From Bradymonadia bacterium (GTDB taxonomy: Bacteria; Myxococcota_A; Bradymonadia; UBA7976; UBA1532), in contig JBKAGE010000037.1 of the NCBI GenBank assembly GCA_046290225.1, positions 64,001 to 128,000 of the forward strand: a stretch of DNA of 64,000 bases, given 5' to 3'. Shown here one piece after another: positions 1 through 15,996 of the stretch (position 1 is the stretch's first letter; every line of letters begins with the position of its first letter). The notes under the pieces were generated by a model. The model did no database searches. It saw nothing but the letters and a program-made list of their open reading frames with translations, and was not told the origin of the DNA. The translations under genes were made by a program, and so were the position numbers.

Positions 1-758
1 GTGTAGCTCACCGAGCCTGCGGTGGGCAGACACACAAGAGGCTCGAAGAGCAGCATGTCGAGGGTGAAGCCAGTCTCGATCTCCGGAGTGGCGATGGTGC
101 CCATGCCATCGAAGGTCACGCCAGTCTCGGGCACCCGGGCGATGGCCACGTCTTCGAGGGTGAGATCGATGGACAGCTGGTCCGAGGTGTAGCTCAAATC
201 CGAGTTCACGATGAAGCTGGGCTCTTCGCCCCCCTGGAGGCTCAAGGCAACGTTGCCGTTGAAGCTCTGCGCGTTGACGTCGAAATCCTCGAGGCCCAGG
301 TTGAAGGTCACCGACTCCCCTTCAGTGGAGGCGCCGAGACTCACCGTGCCATCGACGTTGACCTCCTGGGCGCCGAGCACACAGCTGTCGAGTTCGAGGC
401 TGAGCGTGGCGTCGCCCCAACTCAATGACGCGCAGCCCACATTCACCTCTTGCGCCTCGATGATGGCGCGCACGTGCTCACGCAGGGCCTGCAGCCTCTC
501 CCGAATGGGTCGGTCATCCGCCCCGCGCATTCTGTCTGCGCTCTGTGCGTCGACGAGGCTGCTCGCAGCGTTCTGCGCGCTCAAGCCGTCGATCATCCCC
601 CGCATCATGGCGGACTCTTGAGTGCTGATGGCGATCTCCTCACCGGGCGCGCTCGCCTCCGGCGCTTCGGTGGGATCAGAGGTGGTGTCTTCGCCGCAGC
701 CAGTCAGGGCGAAGGGCAACACACAGCTCAGCATCAGGGTCTTGTAGGTGAAGTTCAT
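1..758 (-). CDS. Lipoprotein of unknown function (3' end runs off the window)
   Basis: Manual translation from ATG 758 (GGAGAG upstream): MNFTYKTLMLSCVLPFALTGCGEDTT..., lipobox LTGC, open to base 1. Absent from the ORF track because it has no stop in the window. Confidence 0.8.
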   Translation of the reverse strand, partial: MNFTYKTLMLSCVLPFALTGCGEDTTSDPTEAPEASAPGEEIAISTQESAMMRGMIDGLSAQNAASSLVDAQSADRMRGADDRPIRERLQALREHVRAIIEAQEVNVGCASLSWGDATLSLELDSCVLGAQEVNVDGTVSLGASTEGESVTFNLGLEDFDVNAQSFNGNVALSLQGGEEPSFIVNSDLSYTSDQLSIDLTLEDVAIARVPETGVTFDGMGTIATPEIETGFTLDMLLFEPLVCLPTAGSVSY

Positions 759-882
759 CGTACGTCTCTCCGTGGCCGTGGTCTCAGTCGGTTCTGAAAT
801 CACGGTAGAGGACGTAGCTTACGGTTCTCTTAAGGGGGGTGACTTGGCGTGTCGAGCGCCTCGACAAAGAGGCATCGACCTT

Positions 883-1209
883 TCACGGCAAGGCGACCTG
901 AAGCTCCACGTGGGTCACGCACTTCGGCGGCGGGTTGCCCTCCGTGGGCACTGTGCACCACGGATCGTCGATGGGCGAAACTTCAGCGATCTCTCCGAGG
1001 CGCATACAGCGCCACGCGCCCCCTTCGGGCAGGCCACTGTGACTGCCGCCGCCGAACTGGAACACCAGCACGTGGGGCTCGTCGTCGACGTTGCGGCCGA
1101 GAATGTGTGGCGCGCACAGGCGCTCGAGGCCCTGATACACCATGCGCACTGAGGTGCGCCCCTTGATGGCGTCGGCGAGTGTCGCCCGAATCGAAGTATC
1201 TGCAGACAT
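883..1209 (-). CDS. Small stand-alone WYL-like domain protein
   Basis: Pattern Y.G.ERLCAPHILG...LVFQFGGGS.SGLP...WRC.RL..I resembles WYL domains; GGAGG RBS upstream. Confidence 0.6.
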   Translation of the reverse strand: MSADTSIRATLADAIKGRTSVRMVYQGLERLCAPHILGRNVDDEPHVLVFQFGGGSHSGLPEGGAWRCMRLGEIAEVSPIDDPWCTVPTEGNPPPKCVTHVELQVALP

Positions 1210-4281: not shown

Positions 4282-5292
4282 TCACTTGCCCAACTTCTGC
4301 CGCGCCTCTGCCCGCATGGGATCGTGGTAGGTGCGCTGGTAGTAGAAGAAGCTGGTGACGCTGGCATCGCCGATGGCGAAGGTGAACTGCTCGCGAGCGC
4401 CACCGGCCCAGCCTTCGTAGTCGATGGGCAACATGTCGACCACAGTGGAGACAGAGTAGCCCGGTGCGATGCGCGCCGGGTTGGCGTCCGCAGGCATGCC
4501 TTTGGCATTGGGCATGGCATGGGCCTGCCCAAGGTGCACATAGAGCAAGCTCTCGTCCCACAAGATCTCGCCGCCCTTCTCCAACAGCGCCGGCACCGTC
4601 ACGATCTCCTTGGAGGTGTTGGTCACGGTGATCTTGAACTTGCCGTCGCCGAAGGGGTTGCTCCACTTCACATCTTGCTCTGGGGCCACCTGCTCCACGT
4701 CGATCTGCACATGGGGCCCGACCCGCAGTGAACGGCGTCCGACGATGGGGGCCTTCACCGAGCCATCTTTGAGCACCCAGCCCACAGGCTCTGCGCTGGC
4801 TCGGGTGGCGCGGGCGACGTTCTCCTTCGTGGGTTGGGCGATGCCCCTGATGGACCAGCTCACTGGGGGCGCGTTGTGCTCTTTGAGCTTGAGGGTCTGC
4901 ACGTTCCGGTTGATGCCCAGCAACACCGAGTCGCCCACCCTGGGGATCTCGGCTTCGAAGATGGTGTGCAGATAGACCGGCTCGGTGGCGCCTGGGTGCC
5001 GACCCTTAATGTGCTGTGTCACGTCGATGTTGAGGGCCACGACGTGCTGCGCCGGGTAGCTCTCCAACACGTCGTGGGTGACGATCTTGGCGATCCTGGC
5101 CACCACAACGGTGTCCGACTGATTCATGGCCTGTGTGGTGACATATTCGACTGGAGGTGGGCTGTGCTCCAGTGCCCCTGCGACACGCTCGGGGTTTCGC
5201 TGGGCCTGGGCGCTGGCGCTCAGAGCGGCGAGGAGAGTGAGGGCGCAGGCGATCGAGTTGAGAGGCTTGGACATTTCGGGGATGCTCCGCAT
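4282..5292 (-). CDS. Secreted hypothetical protein
   Basis: Signal peptide ...ALTLLAALSASAQA; 336 aa. Confidence 0.7.
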   Translation of the reverse strand: MRSIPEMSKPLNSIACALTLLAALSASAQAQRNPERVAGALEHSPPPVEYVTTQAMNQSDTVVVARIAKIVTHDVLESYPAQHVVALNIDVTQHIKGRHPGATEPVYLHTIFEAEIPRVGDSVLLGINRNVQTLKLKEHNAPPVSWSIRGIAQPTKENVARATRASAEPVGWVLKDGSVKAPIVGRRSLRVGPHVQIDVEQVAPEQDVKWSNPFGDGKFKITVTNTSKEIVTVPALLEKGGEILWDESLLYVHLGQAHAMPNAKGMPADANPARIAPGYSVSTVVDMLPIDYEGWAGGAREQFTFAIGDASVTSFFYYQRTYHDPMRAEARQKLGK

Positions 5293-5421
5293 TCATTTCG
5301 TGTGCAGGTTGGCTGACGAAGGCTGTCACGTGCGCCTCCAGGAAAAGTTCTGACAAAAATCCTGGAAAACGCTCGGCCACACCGGACACCTGCGGTTTTC
5401 TTCTACGTACAGGGGCGACTC

Positions 5422-6228
5422 ATGACCACGCCTGGGCCACAGAGCCTCGTCGACATCGGCGCCAACCTCACCCACGAGAGCTTCAAGAGCGACCTCGACC
5501 AGGTCCTCGCCGAGGCAGAGGCTGCCGGTGTCCGGCGCCTCATCGTCACCGGCACCACGGTGGCCGACAGCGTCGAAGCTGCAGATCTCGCAGCACAGCA
5601 CCCTGGTCGGCTCTTCAGCACCGCCGGCGTGCACCCGCACTACGCCAAGGGCTGCGACGACCACACGCTCGGCCACCTGCGTACGCTCGCAGCGCGGCCC
5701 GAGGTGGTGGCCTTGGGTGAGGCGGGGCTCGACTACAACCGCGACTTCTCTCCACGACCCGTGCAACGACACTGGTGTGCGGCGCAGCTGCAGCTCGCCA
5801 CCGAGCTGAAGATGCCTGTCTTCTTGCACAGCCGGGACGCACACGCCGACATGCTCGCCCTCGTCTCCGAGCACCGTGATGGTCTCGTCGACGGTGTGGT
5901 GCACTGCTTCACGGGCACCGCCGAAGAGGCCAGGGACTGGCTCGATCTCGGCCTGCACATCGGCATCACCGGATGGATCTGCGACGAGCGTCGAGGCACC
6001 CATTTGAGAGAGGTGGTGAAGACGATCCCCCTCGATCGCCTGATGGTGGAGACGGACTGCCCCTACCTGATGCCCCGCACTCTGAGACCACGGCCCAAGA
6101 CCCGGCGCAATGTGCCGGCCCACCTGCCCCACGTCACCGAGATCCTCGCAGAGTGCATGGGGCTGCCCATAGACGAAGTTGCTCAGGGCACCACAGCCAC
6201 GGCGGAGCGTTTCTTCAGATTGGTCTGA
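5422..6228 (+). CDS. tatD: TatD-family DNase
   Basis: DIGANL, TAGVHPH, ALGEAGLDY, PVFLHSRDA, VVHCFTG and ETDCPY motifs. Confidence 0.93.
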   Translation: MTTPGPQSLVDIGANLTHESFKSDLDQVLAEAEAAGVRRLIVTGTTVADSVEAADLAAQHPGRLFSTAGVHPHYAKGCDDHTLGHLRTLAARPEVVALGEAGLDYNRDFSPRPVQRHWCAAQLQLATELKMPVFLHSRDAHADMLALVSEHRDGLVDGVVHCFTGTAEEARDWLDLGLHIGITGWICDERRGTHLREVVKTIPLDRLMVETDCPYLMPRTLRPRPKTRRNVPAHLPHVTEILAECMGLPIDEVAQGTTATAERFFRLV

Positions 6229-11915: not shown

Positions 11916-12740
11916 ATGACCGTGACACAACGGCTGATCTCCCCACTTCTCCTCGGCGCACTCGCGCTTCTCCCTGCGTGCAAGGGCGACGCGCCCACGC
12001 CACCCGCTGGCGCTCAGAAGAGCGCCAAGGGTGCTCAGAAGGGCACCCCGGCGGTGCCCAACCTGGGCAAGCCCGGTGACGGCTTCGACCTGCCCAAGAT
12101 GCGGTCCAGCCTCGACGGCACCTGGATCATCAACCCCCAGTGGGGTCAGCGCATCGACGTGTGGCACCTCGACGGCAGCAAGGCGAAGCTGCTGCGTGGG
12201 GCTCTGGAGCGCGAGGTGGACGCGCTGGTCGACCTGCACGCCCCCTGTCGGATCCGCTTCACCACCAAGGGGGTCAAAGGCGGACCAGACTTCAGCTGGA
12301 CACGTAACTTCGTGCTCGAAGAGGGCAAATTGTTCGCAGGCCAGGCAGCTACGGGCTTGATCCAGGGCGATCGCACCATCGTCTGCGGGCGCCAGGGCAC
12401 CTTCATCAAGCAAGGCGATCAATGCGCCTATCACCCGATGCTCAAGCCCGGGGCCAAAAAGAACGCCAAGGTCCCTGCACCTGTGGCCGCGAAGTGCAGC
12501 CTCGAGGGTCAGTCCTTCGAGGCCCAGGCAGGCAAGGTGAAGGCGAAGCTCACCCGCCGCGGCGAGATCCTGGTGGCAGACGCGGTCCGACCTCTGGAGA
12601 AGATGCCGAGCTTCGAGGCTGCGAAGACGCGCTTCAGGCAAGCAAGCATGCGCCGACCCGGTGAAGCCCTGGAGCCGATCAAGGGCAGGGTGGAAGACAT
12701 GAAGCCGCCGACCCCCGCACCGAGCAGTCAACCGCAATGA
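11916..12740 (+). CDS. Lipoprotein of unknown function
   Basis: MTVTQRLISPLLLGALALLPAC lipobox; basic, with several Cys. Confidence 0.72.
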   Translation: MTVTQRLISPLLLGALALLPACKGDAPTPPAGAQKSAKGAQKGTPAVPNLGKPGDGFDLPKMRSSLDGTWIINPQWGQRIDVWHLDGSKAKLLRGALEREVDALVDLHAPCRIRFTTKGVKGGPDFSWTRNFVLEEGKLFAGQAATGLIQGDRTIVCGRQGTFIKQGDQCAYHPMLKPGAKKNAKVPAPVAAKCSLEGQSFEAQAGKVKAKLTRRGEILVADAVRPLEKMPSFEAAKTRFRQASMRRPGEALEPIKGRVEDMKPPTPAPSSQPQ

Positions 12741-12892
12741 CGGCCATTCTTCGGGCCATCTGAGCACCCCCGATACATCGTCAGTTGCAGGTGCCCTTCC
12801 GCCGAATCGTCGGAGCACATCTAAAAAAGCTGACAGCGCCCTTCGTGTCCACTAGACACATACTATCGTTCACACACGAAGAGAGCATCCTC

Positions 12893-13249
12893 ATGCGCAT
12901 CCTCGTCGCTGGCGCTGTCGGTTGGACTGATCGCGAAGTCATTCATCGTGAGCTGAGTTGTTGCCCTGAGGCCACCCACATCATCACGGGTGATGCTCCG
13001 GGGGCTGACGCCCTCGCCGAAGAGGTGGGGCAAGGCCTCGGCTTCAGCGTGCAGCGGATGCACAAAAACAAGAAGGATTATGAGCGGTATGGCCGCGGCG
13101 CATGGAAAGGGCTCAATGAGCGCATGCTGGCTCAAGGGCCTGATCGAGTGCTCATTTTCCACCCGGCCATCGAGAAGAGCCGCGGCAGCAAGCACATGGG
13201 CAAGATCGCAGAAGCAGCGGGGGTAGAGGTGCAGGTGTTCAGCGGCTGA
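12893..13249 (+). CDS. SLOG-superfamily protein (DUF2493/YspA-like)
   Basis: MRILVAG, IITGDAPGADALAE, NERML, VLIFH and SRGSKHM motifs; convergent with the tRNA array. Confidence 0.8.
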   Translation: MRILVAGAVGWTDREVIHRELSCCPEATHIITGDAPGADALAEEVGQGLGFSVQRMHKNKKDYERYGRGAWKGLNERMLAQGPDRVLIFHPAIEKSRGSKHMGKIAEAAGVEVQVFSG

Positions 13250-13269
13250 TCACCTGCACCTCTACGTCG

Positions 13270-13353
13270 TACCGGAGGTCGGAGTCGAACCGACAAGGCC
13301 ATCACAGCCAACCTGGTTTGAGCAGGCCGCGTTTACCATTTCGCCACTCCGGC
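13270..13353 (-). tRNA. tRNA-Leu(CAA), class II
   Basis: Acceptor GCCGGAG/CTCCGGT, A73; anticodon arm GCCTG-CTCAAAC-CAGGT; long V arm; T arm GTCGG-TTCGACT-CCGAC. Confidence 0.93.
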
Positions 13354-13406
13354 AAAAGACACCTCGCCTCTCTGAGAGAGACGAGGCGCCCCGCCCCTGA
13401 TCGTGC

Positions 13407-13467
13407 ACGCCATGGATGAGGCTCGAACTGACACAGCCAGATCGTGCTCTGCACTCGCCACGGCGCA
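13407..13467 (-). pseudogene. Possible degenerate tRNA remnant (acceptor plus T-arm-like)
   Basis: GCCGTGG...CCATGGC outer stem and imperfect GTCAG-TTCGAGC-CTCAT arm; no anticodon arm. Confidence 0.35.
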
Positions 13468-13471
13468 TATG

Positions 13472-13558
13472 CGGAAGAGGAGGGAGTCGAACCCCCAAGG
13501 CTTTTCACAGCTCGACCGGGTTCAAACCGGCTGCCGTCACCTGTCGGCTTGCTCTTCC
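13472..13558 (-). tRNA. tRNA-Ser(UGA), class II
   Basis: Acceptor GGAAGAG/CTCTTCC, G73; GCCGG-TTTGAAC-CCGGT; T loop TTCGACT; C at position 8. Confidence 0.92.
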
Positions 13559-13585
13559 AGTTGGGCTACGGTGCTCCGGCTTTTG

Positions 13586-13756
13586 GCTCCGGTGCTCCGG
13601 CCTCATCGCCCGCCATCAGGGCGGCGATCTGGCGCCCAGATGCGGCGCTCCGATCCTCGACGTAGCCTCTGGCTACGCCTGCGGTCGGAACACCACATCT
13701 GAACACCACCTCACCACCCTGCTGACGAGCGCTGCGACCTCCGCACCTCCGCGTGC
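13586..13756 (-). repeat. Structured hairpin repeat, copy A
   Basis: Minus strand reads CGGAGG...long G.T-rich hairpin...CCGCAGGCGTAGCCAGAGGCTACGTCGAGG...GCCGGAGCACCGGAGC; motifs shared with copies B and C. Confidence 0.85.
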
Positions 13757-13832
13757 CCGGCCTGATGTTGGCTCCAGTTTTGTGTTGCTGGAGCCCACGT
13801 TAATCTGGGCCCGTGGACCCTTTGGCTTGTCG

Positions 13833-13917
13833 TGGATGGGGAGGGAATCGAACCCCCGGGGTGCGTACGCACGGCGGGACTACAAGCCGCCCCGGCCCCC
13901 TACCGGTCTACCCATCC
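13833..13917 (-). tRNA. tRNA-Tyr(GUA), class II, atypical (C31.C39 mismatch, G37)
   Basis: Acceptor GGATGGG/CCCATCC, A73; GCGGC-TTGTAGT-CCCGC; V arm GTGCGTACGCAC; T loop TTCGATT. Confidence 0.82.
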
Positions 13918-14016
13918 AAAAATGTTCGCCCACAGGGGCTCGGCAGCTCGTCGATGGGTGAGCACCGCGCATGTGCACTCGATCACCAACCAGACGCTGA
14001 GCCCCTGGGCAAAATG

Positions 14017-14101
14017 TGGACAGGGAGGGAGTCGAACCCACGGGGTGCGTACGCACAGCGGATTTACAGTCCGCTCCGGCCCCCCACCGGACTACCTGTC
14101 C
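14017..14101 (-). tRNA. tRNA-Tyr(GUA), class II
   Basis: Acceptor GGACAGG/CCTGTCC, A73; GCGGA-CTGTAAA-TCCGC; V arm GTGCGTACGCAC; one U.U mismatch in the T stem. Confidence 0.88.
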
Positions 14102-14149
14102 AAAAGGCGCTCATTCACAGGGGTCGAATGACCCCACTCGAACCCAAAG

Positions 14150-14326
14150 CACATATGTACTTGCCCCGCGGAGGCTCTGGGGCTCGGTGGCTGGCCGGTG
14201 AGTGAGTGTGCAGTCGTGGTGGCAAAAGCGCAGGCGTGGCCGGAGGCCCCGTCGAGCATTTTGACGCCGCGAAAGTACGCTCAATCGCCGGCCAGACGCC
14301 GGGCCCCAGAGCCGGAGCGCCGGAGC
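14150..14326 (+). repeat. Structured hairpin repeat, copy B
   Basis: CACATATGTACTTGCCCCGCGGAGGC...hairpin...GCGCAGGCGTGGCCGGAGGCCCCGTCGAGC...GCCGGAGCGCCGGAGC. Confidence 0.85.
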
Positions 14327-14334
14327 AAAAAGTG

Positions 14335-14422
14335 CGGAGGCGGAGGGATTCGAACCCCCACGACCCTTGCGGGCCCTACCAAGGTAGCAACCTGGCCTCT
14401 TCACCAATTTGAGTACGCCTCC
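14335..14422 (-). tRNA. tRNA-Ser(GCU), class II
   Basis: Acceptor GGAGGCG/CGCCTCC, G73; CCAGG-TTGCTAC-CTTGG; V arm GGCCC-GCAA-GGGTC. Confidence 0.93.
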
Positions 14423-14449
14423 ACACAAGGCTGAGCTGTCACGCATCAG

Positions 14450-14534
14450 TGCCGCGAGCCGGATTCGAACCGGCACGACCAAAGGCGGTCCCCGGGCTCT
14501 CAACCCGGTGTGTCTTCCGTTCCACCACCACGGC
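14450..14534 (-). tRNA. tRNA-Leu(GAG), class II
   Basis: Acceptor GCCGTGG/TCGCGGC, A73; CCGGG-TTGAGAG-CCCGG; V arm GACC..GGTC; GCCGG-TTCGAAT-CCGGC. Confidence 0.92.
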
Positions 14535-14543
14535 AAAAATCAG

Positions 14544-14630
14544 CGGAAGAGGAGGGAGTCGAACCCCCAAGGCCCTTTCGAGCTCACCCGTATTCGAAAC
14601 GGGCGCCATCACCCATTGGCTTGCTCTTCC
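14544..14630 (-). tRNA. tRNA-Ser(CGA), class II
   Basis: Acceptor GGAAGAG/CTCTTCC, G73; CCCGT-TTCGAAT-ACGGG; close paralog of Ser(UGA); C8. Confidence 0.92.
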
Positions 14631-14663
14631 GTATGGCTCCAGAGCTTCAGCCATGGAGCACTG

Positions 14664-14748
14664 TGGACAAGGAGAGAGTCGAACTCCCGAGGTGCGTACG
14701 CACGACGCGTTTACAGCGCGCTCCGGTCCCCTACCGGCCTACCTGTCC
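14664..14748 (-). tRNA. tRNA-Tyr(GUA), class II
   Basis: Acceptor GGACAGG/CTTGTCC, A73; GCGCG-CTGTAAA-CGCGT; V arm GTGCGTACGCAC. Confidence 0.88.
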
Positions 14749-14756
14749 TCAAAATG

Positions 14757-14845
14757 CGGAAGCGGCGGGAGTCGAACCCGCAGTGCCTTTCACGGCACAC
14801 CTGTTTTCCGGACAGGCGCGGCGAACCGATATCCGCCTCGCTTCC
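14757..14845 (-). tRNA. tRNA-Ser(GGA), class II, atypical (A8, C33)
   Basis: Acceptor GGAAGCG/CGCTTCC, G73; CCTGT-CCGGAAA-ACAGG; V arm GTGCC-GTGAAA-GGCAC; all stems perfectly paired. Confidence 0.87.
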
Positions 14846-14983
14846 AAACATCACACACATGTATCCCACCAGCATGCCGACGCAATACAACCATCTCATC
14901 AACACGCAACATGAAGACGCGATACACACGTGTATCAAACGGCACGCACCTACCATCGCCGCCAGAGATCAGAAGTCAGGAAG

Positions 14984-15067
14984 TGCCCGGGGTGAGATTC
15001 GAACTCACACGTCCTCACGGACACCGGCTTCTGAGGCCGGCGCGTCTACCAGTTCCGCCACCCGGGC
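14984..15067 (-). tRNA. tRNA-Leu(CAG), class II; first gene of the array
   Basis: Acceptor GCCCGGG/CCCGGGC, A73; CCGGC-CTCAGAA-GCCGG; V arm GTCC-GTGA-GGAC. Confidence 0.95.
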
Positions 15068-15174
15068 ATATGGATCCCCAGCGACGATGGCAGGCACGGC
15101 ACATCGTGAGCACACACCCACAATGCTTTTATTTTCTAAGGCTTATGTGCCCTCACGAGCATCAACCGAGGCAC

Positions 15175-15209
15175 AAAAAAAGCCCCTCGGCAGATGCCTG
15201 AGGGGCTTT
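15175..15209 (-). terminator. Intrinsic terminator (attenuator) upstream of the tRNA array
   Basis: AAAGCCCCTC-AGGCATCTGCC-GAGGGGC followed by T7. Confidence 0.92.
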
Positions 15210-15247
15210 CGTGCGAAGACCGGCAGGCCTCAGCTCGAACTCCCCTC
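15200..15247 (-). promoter_or_regulatory. Antiterminator hairpin overlapping the leader stop codon and the terminator 5' arm
   Basis: GAGGGGAGTTCGAGCTGAGGCC-TGCC-GGTCTTCGCACGAAAGCCCCTC: 18 of 22 positions pair (2 are G.U), sequestering the terminator's AAAGCCCCTC arm. Confidence 0.82.
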
Positions 15248-15337
15248 GAGGGCACTCAGAAGCAACGACGCGCAATAAGACAGGCGCAAGTCGAGGCTTG
15301 AGAGGCGAGAGTTGGAGGTGTTCGAGATGAAGTGCAT
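15230..15337 (-). CDS. Ser/Leu/Tyr-rich leader peptide, 35 aa (MHFISNTSNSRLSSLDLRLSYCASLLLSALEGSSS)
   Basis: AAGGGA RBS 8 nt before the ATG; 11 Ser, 8 Leu and 1 Tyr codons; lies between the promoter and terminator; below the ORF-track size cut-off. Confidence 0.85.
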   Translation of the reverse strand: MHFISNTSNSRLSSLDLRLSYCASLLLSALEGSSS

Positions 15338-15365
15338 GAGAACTATCCCTTGTTGAGTGACTCGA

Positions 15366-15394
15366 AAGGTAGCGGCATAGTCTGACTGTGTCAA
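15366..15394 (-). promoter_or_regulatory. Sigma70-type promoter of the leader/tRNA operon
   Basis: TTGACA-N17-TACCTT with an A/T-rich UP-like tract upstream; predicted start ~15359. Confidence 0.85.
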
Positions 15395-15477
15395 AGACAT
15401 TTTTCACATGACAGTCATTTTTCTATTTCGGCCCACTCTGAGCACACCGACAGTCAGCCACTCGGGCTGTAGTATCC

Positions 15478-15996
15478 TCAGGGGACCCATATCTCCTCCC
15501 GGATCGCCCAGCGCTCGTGATCACGCCATGCACCATCCAAAAAGAGGTAGCTCTTGGAGTAGCCCTCACGCTCGAAGCCCACCCGCTTCACGAGCTGAAT
15601 CGATCGCATGTTCTCGGGCCGGATGTTGGCCTCAAGACGGTGCAAGCCGATGCGAGAAAACGCCCACTCCAGACAGCTGTGCATCCCCTCCTCCATCTTC
15701 CCTGAACCCGCATGGGGCAAGAAGGCGCCGTAACCCATGTACGCGCTGCGGAACAGGCCCATGGAGATCTGGCTGAGGTTGAACACCCCCGCGGGCTCCC
15801 CTGAGGCCTGATCGATCAACACAAGAGTGCGAAAGGCATCGCTCTGCCGATCGATGAGCAGCTGGAACGCCTCTACCGTACGCGCCGTAGAAAACCAGGG
15901 CCCGTGCAGGGAGACACTGGCCTGCGCCGCCGCGATGAACGCCATCTCGTCTTCAGGCACCAATGGTCGGAGTAGAGTTCTTGCGCTCGAGATCAA
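15478..15996 (-). CDS. RimJ/RimL-family GNAT N-acetyltransferase (second paralog)
   Basis: FRSAYMGY...GSGKMEEG, LHRLEANIRPENMRS and GFEREGYSKSYL.LDGAWRDH; TTG start 15996 after GGAGG. Confidence 0.88.
   Translation of the reverse strand: MISSARTLLRPLVPEDEMAFIAAAQASVSLHGPWFSTARTVEAFQLLIDRQSDAFRTLVLIDQASGEPAGVFNLSQISMGLFRSAYMGYGAFLPHAGSGKMEEGMHSCLEWAFSRIGLHRLEANIRPENMRSIQLVKRVGFEREGYSKSYLFLDGAWRDHERWAIREEIWVP

Follow-up and report, generated by a model that had tools for sequence, protein, structure and literature searches.

A spare operon of serine, leucine and tyrosine tRNA genes in a Bradymonadia bacterium is likely under ribosome-mediated transcription attenuation, with a probability of about 0.8 as judged from sequence and folding models. 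The region ahead of the tRNA genes resembles known attenuators in having an ORF with a ribosome-binding site, cognate codons, a terminator and a predicted, mutually exclusive antiterminator that overlaps the leader end, all within a compact control region of about 220 nt. The operon lies on the minus strand of the 64,000-nt stretch of DNA analysed here (the window). It belongs to a near-complete spare tRNA set in six parts, and the other five parts hold short-arm tRNAs.

The Ser/Leu/Tyr Array

ARAGORN finds ten tRNA genes on the minus strand at 13269-15067, which are the complete tRNA content of the window, and all ten are matched by Rfam. The genes are 84-89 nt long, have long variable arms throughout and comprise four Ser, three Leu and three Tyr tRNAs, one Tyr gene being degenerate. 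The discriminator is G73 in Ser and A73 in Leu and Tyr. In the direction of transcription, tRNA-Leu(CAG) (14984..15067), which carries A37 in contrast to the G37 of its housekeeping copy, is followed by tRNA-Ser(GGA) (14757..14845) with C33 in place of U33 and a long D stem, tRNA-Tyr(GUA) (14664..14748), tRNA-Ser(CGA) (14544..14630), tRNA-Leu(GAG) (14450..14534), again with A37 for the G37 of the housekeeping copy, tRNA-Ser(GCU) (14335..14422) and a second tRNA-Tyr(GUA) (14017..14101). A Tyr(GUA)-like gene with an altered anticodon loop (13833..13917), tRNA-Ser(UGA) (13472..13558) and the final gene, tRNA-Leu(CAA) (13270..13353), complete the array; Ser(CGA) and Ser(UGA) are of the long-array type. 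ARAGORN labels the gene at 13833-13917 Thr(UGU). Aligned with the Tyr gene at 14017-14101, to which its identity is 82%, it reads Tyr(GUA) and has G37, U38 and an unpaired position 31-39 in that register. The array is nine firm tRNA genes and one degenerate gene. An earlier, sequence-only reading of this DNA had given the same order, anticodons, lengths and identity elements, with the degenerate Tyr gene as the one exception. It had also found neither class I tRNA genes nor an integrase nearby, and this holds: ARAGORN finds only the ten genes in the window, and none of the eight matches to the tyrosine integrase family PF00589 in the genome lies on this contig or on any other contig with an array.

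All ten genes have C74 and none encodes CCA, as had been pointed out before. Neither this nor the proposed dependence on a CCA-adding enzyme sets the array apart, though. Among housekeeping tRNA genes, 9/47 encode CCA, 34/47 have C74 but no CCA, and CCA is missing from 9 of the 10 Ser/Leu/Tyr genes, while CCA is encoded by 9/38 accessory genes (five doubtful ARAGORN calls are excluded from these counts and six genes at other loci are tallied separately). Because the absence of CCA is genome-wide, it is uninformative as to the array and was rejected as a special trait; dependence on CCA addition would be common to most tRNAs of this genome. The genome holds two genes of the PolyA_pol family, which covers both CCA-adding and poly(A) activity.

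A Spare tRNA Set Divided Into Blocks

Whether canonical Ser, Leu and Tyr genes exist elsewhere is answered by the 96 tRNA genes that ARAGORN lists in the genome. Four Ser, five Leu and one Tyr housekeeping genes sit on other contigs or loci, so that the array is supernumerary and its interpretation as a housekeeping cluster can be rejected. Further spare blocks encode Arg/Lys/Val/Ile (nine genes at the end of contig C20, with a probable continuation in two Arg genes on C24), Asp/Glu/Phe/Gln (seven genes on C42), Ala/Gly/Thr (seven genes on C79), Cys, Pro and a Met-like tRNA, whose genes lie around one for a nucleoside hydrolase (C42), Trp (C77) and Asn/His (C44).

The array tRNAs share 62-81% identity with the closest long-arm tRNA of the housekeeping set. 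Identity of Ser(UGA) and Ser(CGA) to long-array tRNAs of other genomes is 80-82%, the latter having themselves been fetched with a motif from these genes, and the two Ser tRNAs group with arrays of other phyla in a tree that is short and uses comparison arrays fetched by the same motif. The anticodon loop differs from that of the housekeeping isoacceptor in 8/10 genes of the window and in 25/36 of the accessory set, counts for which no null was computed. A37 replaces G37 in Leu(CAG), Leu(GAG), Arg(CCG) and Arg(ACG); given what is known of TrmD, these tRNAs presumably escape G37 methylation. With ten genes in the window and the set split over several contigs, the array falls below the definition of an L-array, which asks for at least 20 genes in one array (PMC4758250). 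The spare set probably derives from a long array gained by horizontal transfer and later split into blocks, and each leader would then have adapted to its own block.

A Leader ORF Matched to the Array

Upstream of the array, a regex scan identifies a predicted sigma70-like promoter with the -35 hexamer TTGACA (15389..15394) and, 17 nt past it, the -10 hexamer TACCTT (15366..15371). A stricter promoter scan of the window does not list this promoter; -35 boxes similar to TTGACA precede the leaders of other blocks. The Shine-Dalgarno-like motif AAGGGA (15346..15351) lies 8 nt ahead of the ATG of a leader ORF of 35 amino acids (P0001, MHFISNTSNSRLSSLDLRLSYCASLLLSALEGSSS; 15230..15337), all of these elements being on the minus strand. 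The ORF has no match in Pfam or NCBIfam. The 34 codons after Met include 11 for Ser, 8 for Leu and 1 for Tyr, and this share of 20/34 has a binomial p of ~5e-8 against the amino-acid frequencies of the genome. In frame, the Ser/Leu/Tyr fraction is 0.59, compared to 0.21 and 0.32 out of frame, and 0/5000 base shuffles reach it. The frame and shuffle controls reject a pyrimidine-rich composition as the source of the Ser/Leu richness. At the level of single codons, the occurrence of all six Ser codons does not reach significance (p 0.10), and a match of the leader to the isoacceptors of the array is unsupported, as the missing TTA and CTA make up only 1.2% of Leu codons.

Leaders with cognate codons also precede the blocks for Arg/Lys/Val/Ile (C20:1499-1606, 20/34 cognate), Asp/Glu/Phe/Gln (C42:93743-93841, 17/31), Ala/Gly/Thr (C79:73494-73673, 24/58), Cys/Met/Pro (C42:38124-38237, 14/36 plus 5 His) and Trp (C77:152301-152381, 2/25, as Trp-Trp). 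No His tRNA gene was found in the Cys/Met/Pro block despite the five His codons. When the six leaders and blocks are paired in all 720 ways and scored by binomial p, the true pairing is the best. One blind rule applied to 44 tRNA loci recovers cognate-enriched leaders with a Shine-Dalgarno motif at five spare blocks and at 0/32 housekeeping loci; it misses the Cys/Met/Pro and Asn/His blocks. The genome contains 135 terminator-like sites, 35 of which are preceded by a short ORF. The Ser/Leu/Tyr richness of the leader is reached at only one of the 135, the array's own, and the scores of the Asp/Glu/Phe/Gln and Ala/Gly/Thr leaders are likewise reached only by their own sites. The Trp leader is less distinctive, its score being reached by 8 of the 135 sites and its shuffle p being 0.11. 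The C20 site was removed from the 135-site set by the terminator prefilter and was recovered by the blind rule on the 44 loci.

The same design precedes two further genes of this genome, asnB, whose leader contains Asn-Asn, and a gene for an RNA ligase of the DRB0094 family, whose leader covers 18 amino acids and shows a clean modelled switch. An RNA ligase behind such a leader fits a purpose in tRNA damage.

The Predicted Terminator/Antiterminator Switch

The leader is followed on the minus strand by a predicted intrinsic terminator (15175..15210), a GC-rich hairpin with CCCCUC in its 5' arm and seven U behind it. The hairpin has a folding energy of -26.5 kcal/mol (z -5.2, 0/200 shuffles), and a simple terminator scan of the window does not list it. 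According to folding, GAGGGG in the last codons of the leader (15242-15247, codons 31-32) pairs with CCCCUC and forms the core of a predicted antiterminator 5' strand (15233..15255, minus strand). Only 5/1000 synonymous recodings of the leader match this pairing. Recodings are as good in 12/1000 cases for C42a, 32/1000 for C79, 194/1000 for C77 and 866/1000 for C20; C77 and C20, whose antiterminators do not outperform recoded versions, are weak members in this respect.

For the model of the switch, the ribosome was assumed to cover the RNA up to 9 nt beyond the A site. Stalls at codons 2-25, which contain 13 of the 20 cognate codons, leave the 5' arm of the terminator sequestered at ~0.8, compared to 0.0 with the ribosome at the stop codon. 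The modelled switch is non-monotonic, falling to 0.1 at codons 29-30 and rising back to 0.7 at codons 32-33. Once the full hairpin is transcribed, the model favours the antiterminator for a stall at codon 25 (-40.6 kcal/mol) and the terminator for a ribosome at the stop codon (-22.8). In the naked RNA the terminator folds and the leader's end is paired upstream, which resembles the four-segment plan of the trp attenuator. Near the stop codon, modelled sequestration falls likewise in the four sister units that have a U tract. The Cys/Met/Pro block has a matched leader and neither a U-tract nor a clear terminator. Five promoter-leader-terminator units are dispersed over the genome, intact and diverged in sequence, with their codons matched. 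Swapping antiterminators among the blocks discriminates weakly, the own pair being best or tied in 3/5.

The attenuation mechanism suggested by these models would run as follows. A ribosome that reaches the stop codon would cover the 3' end of the leader, so that the terminator forms and transcription ends ~110 nt ahead of the first tRNA. A ribosome stalled on any of the 13 Ser/Leu/Tyr codons within codons 2-25 would leave the antiterminator strand free to pair with the 5' arm of the terminator, and the polymerase would read through into the tRNA genes.

Related Arrays in Other Genomes

Relatives yielded no orthologous locus in which conservation of this leader could be read directly. BLAST against 40 of them returns single-tRNA matches and no array-length match, and the array motifs occur in 0/112 genomes of the class. 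In the phylum, 4/400 genomes contain the motifs; two of these (G260 and G236) hold real arrays and the other two are chance matches. A motif search in the family of G260 yields nothing new beyond two 2-mismatch matches. In both genomes, whole arrays lie behind a G-rich strand and a C-rich arm as in the genome studied here; the switch was modelled for G236, where EF-Tu and HNH genes follow the array.

A scan with a Ser motif gave 120 loci among the matches listed (of ~300), mostly from Planctomycetota and 80 of them with long flanks. Among 122 loci, 73 clusters contain two or more tRNAs and have 350 nt of upstream sequence, and a strict rule finds a leader and terminator in 42 and none in 31, some of the latter being inner pieces of longer arrays. 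For an alignment, five near-duplicates and five atypical leaders were removed by hand, and 32 of the 42 remained, nearly all planctomycete. The terminator is 96.9% paired in these leaders with 41 double changes (0/500 shuffles), and the antiterminator, reaching across the stop codon in planctomycete leaders, is 81.2% paired with 21 double changes (0/500 shuffles), its last three pairs being weak. Slid controls are 32-56% paired, and kinship can inflate the covariation counts. This covariation belongs to planctomycete analogues and not to the array's own leader.

Small arrays with a matched leader encode Ser/Leu (L117 and L125), Ser/His/Cys (L095), Pro/Asn/Ser (L119 and L058), Ser/Ala/Arg (L090), Ser/Leu/Ala/Arg (L171) and a block of nine amino acids (L188, from the genome of L125; shuffle p of the leader 0.09). 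Only 4 of 40320 pairings of these eight leaders score as well as the true one, in a sample that was chosen for having a leader and includes kin that are not independent. A further locus with Ser/Phe/Leu genes (L209) has a Leu/Ser-rich leader but lacks a modelled switch. No leader was found for the small arrays L056, L062, L075, L101, L111 and L129, and seven viral loci with the Ser motif show no clear matched leader. In a sample of 52, leader diversity increases with array breadth (rho 0.54).

Trigger and Alternative Explanations

Because extra tRNA cannot cure an amino-acid shortage, the useful trigger of the switch is most likely the loss or damage of cognate tRNAs, a preference that we hold with modest confidence. 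At about even odds, we further propose a complete modular backup of decoding, in which six operons each have their own ribosome test track. The loss of one tRNA class to a toxin or an immune nuclease would then induce only the matching, differently built replacements, and the pan-codon leader would induce the RNA ligase for repair.

The leaders might instead act as sensors of general translation stress, for example from ribosome-targeting antibiotics, so that all blocks open together and codon content is minor. Translation inhibitors do induce the long array of Anabaena (PMC8421152), leaders of broad composition precede whole arrays and the RNA ligase, and a stall at any of codons 2-25 yields the same modelled fold. 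Since such a sensor leaves unexplained both the match of each leader to its own block and the reduced leaders that go with reduced arrays, we regard it as improbable in this exclusive form; general stress sensing can hold alongside attenuation. No likelier is a silent array, the decaying cargo of an old mobile element whose leader and terminator no longer switch. The apparently patchy distribution would fit, as would the repeats inserted in the spacers and odd tRNAs such as Ser(GGA) with C33 and the altered third Tyr, whereas the five intact, codon-matched units, the intact acceptor stems and discriminators and the array contigs free of tyrosine integrases argue against decay.

The sequence-only reading had taken structure as the organiser of the array and proposed insurance for long-variable-arm tRNAs against a nuclease, toxin or processing defect that strikes this class specifically. 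It was right that the array is not a housekeeping cluster and that the block is exactly coextensive with the long-arm class, which for one named triple among 20 amino acids has a chance of 1 in 1140 by simple arithmetic. The recurrence of Ser plus Leu blocks with Ser/Leu-rich leaders (L117, L125 and L209) and the altered anticodon loops in the window are also in its favour. However, the organiser that is seen is a codon-matched leader with a terminator, five sister blocks cover short-arm tRNAs, and other small arrays combine Ser with Pro/Asn, His/Cys or Ala/Arg. The suggested co-occurrence with a Schlafen-like tRNase has in its favour that the genome has one Schlafen AlbA_2 gene, but this gene is on another contig, and a family scan of four flanking ORFs found no nuclease gene and no link of the flanking GNAT, SLOG-like, BioB and Nth-like genes to the array. 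Moreover, the two bacterial Schlafens compared are described as cutting tRNA-Lys and others, or T-loops broadly, and are thus not long-arm specific (PMC13056530, PMC13462974). We consider long-arm insurance the least likely of these explanations. That Ser, Leu and Tyr share a block may be due to a weak point common to the long-arm tRNAs, or to their origin from similar genes.

Comparison With Known Systems and Implications

Attenuation of the spare operon would resemble that of amino-acid and aminoacyl-tRNA synthetase operons, where leaders of the trpL, leuL, thrL and ilvL type are likewise short, rich in cognate codons and followed by competing helices; ilvL also shares the multivalent sensing of the array leader (PMC5314783, PMC8079986). 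In contrast to these classical systems, the controlled genes here are tRNAs, so that the output is the sensed molecule, and six parallel units tile 18 amino acids. T-box riboswitches similarly report tRNA charging by conditional termination, but do so by direct binding of uncharged tRNA and independently of translation (PMC5314783), whereas the array design uses a leader ORF. An Rfam search of 12700-15600 with E up to 1 finds no T-box or leader family.

L-arrays and the Anabaena trn operon likewise provide a spare, divergent and apparently patchy set beside the housekeeping tRNAs, and they share a link to RNA ligase and to translation stress as well as related Ser tRNAs (PMC8421152, PMC10272220). 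The Anabaena operon is described as controlled by the DNA-binding repressor TrcR, which acts at direct repeats that cover the -10 box, in contrast to the leader-headed, small amino-acid blocks found here, and the words 'attenuat' and 'leader' do not occur in the main texts of these two papers. Phage tRNAs that evade anticodon nucleases are also spare tRNAs with changed anticodon loops (PMC10264068), comparable to the 25/36 altered accessory loops. Unlike them, the array is chromosomal, with no integrase on its contig, and its nuclease resistance is putative. In a search of article listings, mostly outside subscription journals, we found no publication on leader-peptide attenuation of tRNA genes.

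What turns on the silent supernumerary tRNA arrays of many bacteria, and why they are kept, has so far been explained in one cyanobacterium. A codon-matched attenuator would link a failure in decoding, by direct feedback, to the production of precisely those tRNAs that are missing, and it could be put to use as a codon-specific sensor for damage to tRNA. Many planctomycetes, named isolates (L083 and L123) among them, have the related design, which suggests that it occurs widely. If modular backup decoding is true, the composition of each leader would report which tRNAs come under joint attack in nature.

tRNA genes outside the array

With the Asn and His tRNAs of contig C44 (G000:C44:41225-41498 (+), L180), the spare set of the source genome G000 reaches all 20 amino acids. 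These genes are without a leader and have upstream the same sigma54-like promoter motif as a locus of tRNA-like RNAs (G000:C34:374600-376000 (+), L181:2133-3158). At the latter, three tRNA-like RNAs, whose anticodon arms carry a conserved insert, are accompanied by two Pro tRNAs and followed by a TROVE-domain gene. The tRNA-like RNAs are Y-RNA-like, and comparison with Rfam gave no Y RNA family match.

The leader of the Cys/Met/Pro block (G000:C42:38124-39797 (+), L176) has many His, Met, Cys and Pro codons and precedes an atypical Cys tRNA, a nucleoside hydrolase gene, a Met-like tRNA that escaped both ARAGORN and Rfam, and a Pro tRNA. Neither a His tRNA gene nor a U tract was found in this block. 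Arg(GCG) and Ile(GAU) of the spare set lie at G000:C20:400-901 (-). No second Ile(GAU) gene was found in the assembly; the housekeeping one is probably encoded in unassembled rRNA operons.

A tRNA with a CUA anticodon is encoded on contig C14 (G000:C14:27995-28900 (-), L182:2495-3450). Here, a promoter is followed by an 8-codon ORF with TAG as its stop and by two ORFs (142 and 92 aa) without a match in Pfam/NCBIfam, the second of which seems to us reminiscent of peptidyl-tRNA hydrolase 2. The locus is possibly an amber-suppressor operon.

Surroundings of the arrays

Two spacers of the window's array contain copies (14168-14326 and 13582-13753) of a roughly 160-nt repeat also present on several other contigs (69-81% identity). 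A small SLOG (YAcAr)-like ORF (window 12785-13249 (+); Pfam score below the cut-off) is convergent with the array's end. In another genome, G236, an additional EF-Tu gene and a gene for an HNH nuclease come after the whole tRNA array, which contains several tRNA-like repeats (L199:1851-3026 and 272-916 (-)).

Leaders of protein-coding genes

Upstream of asparagine synthase B, a leader encoding Asn-Asn and a terminator (G000:C82:227878-227967 (-), L204) form a candidate Asn attenuator. At G000:C34:31199-31357 (-) (L203:5700-5858 and 4408-5496), the terminator/antiterminator design of the spare tRNA blocks also precedes a DRB0094-family RNA ligase, whose leader ORF encodes 18 different amino acids and is a candidate general sensor of tRNA damage.
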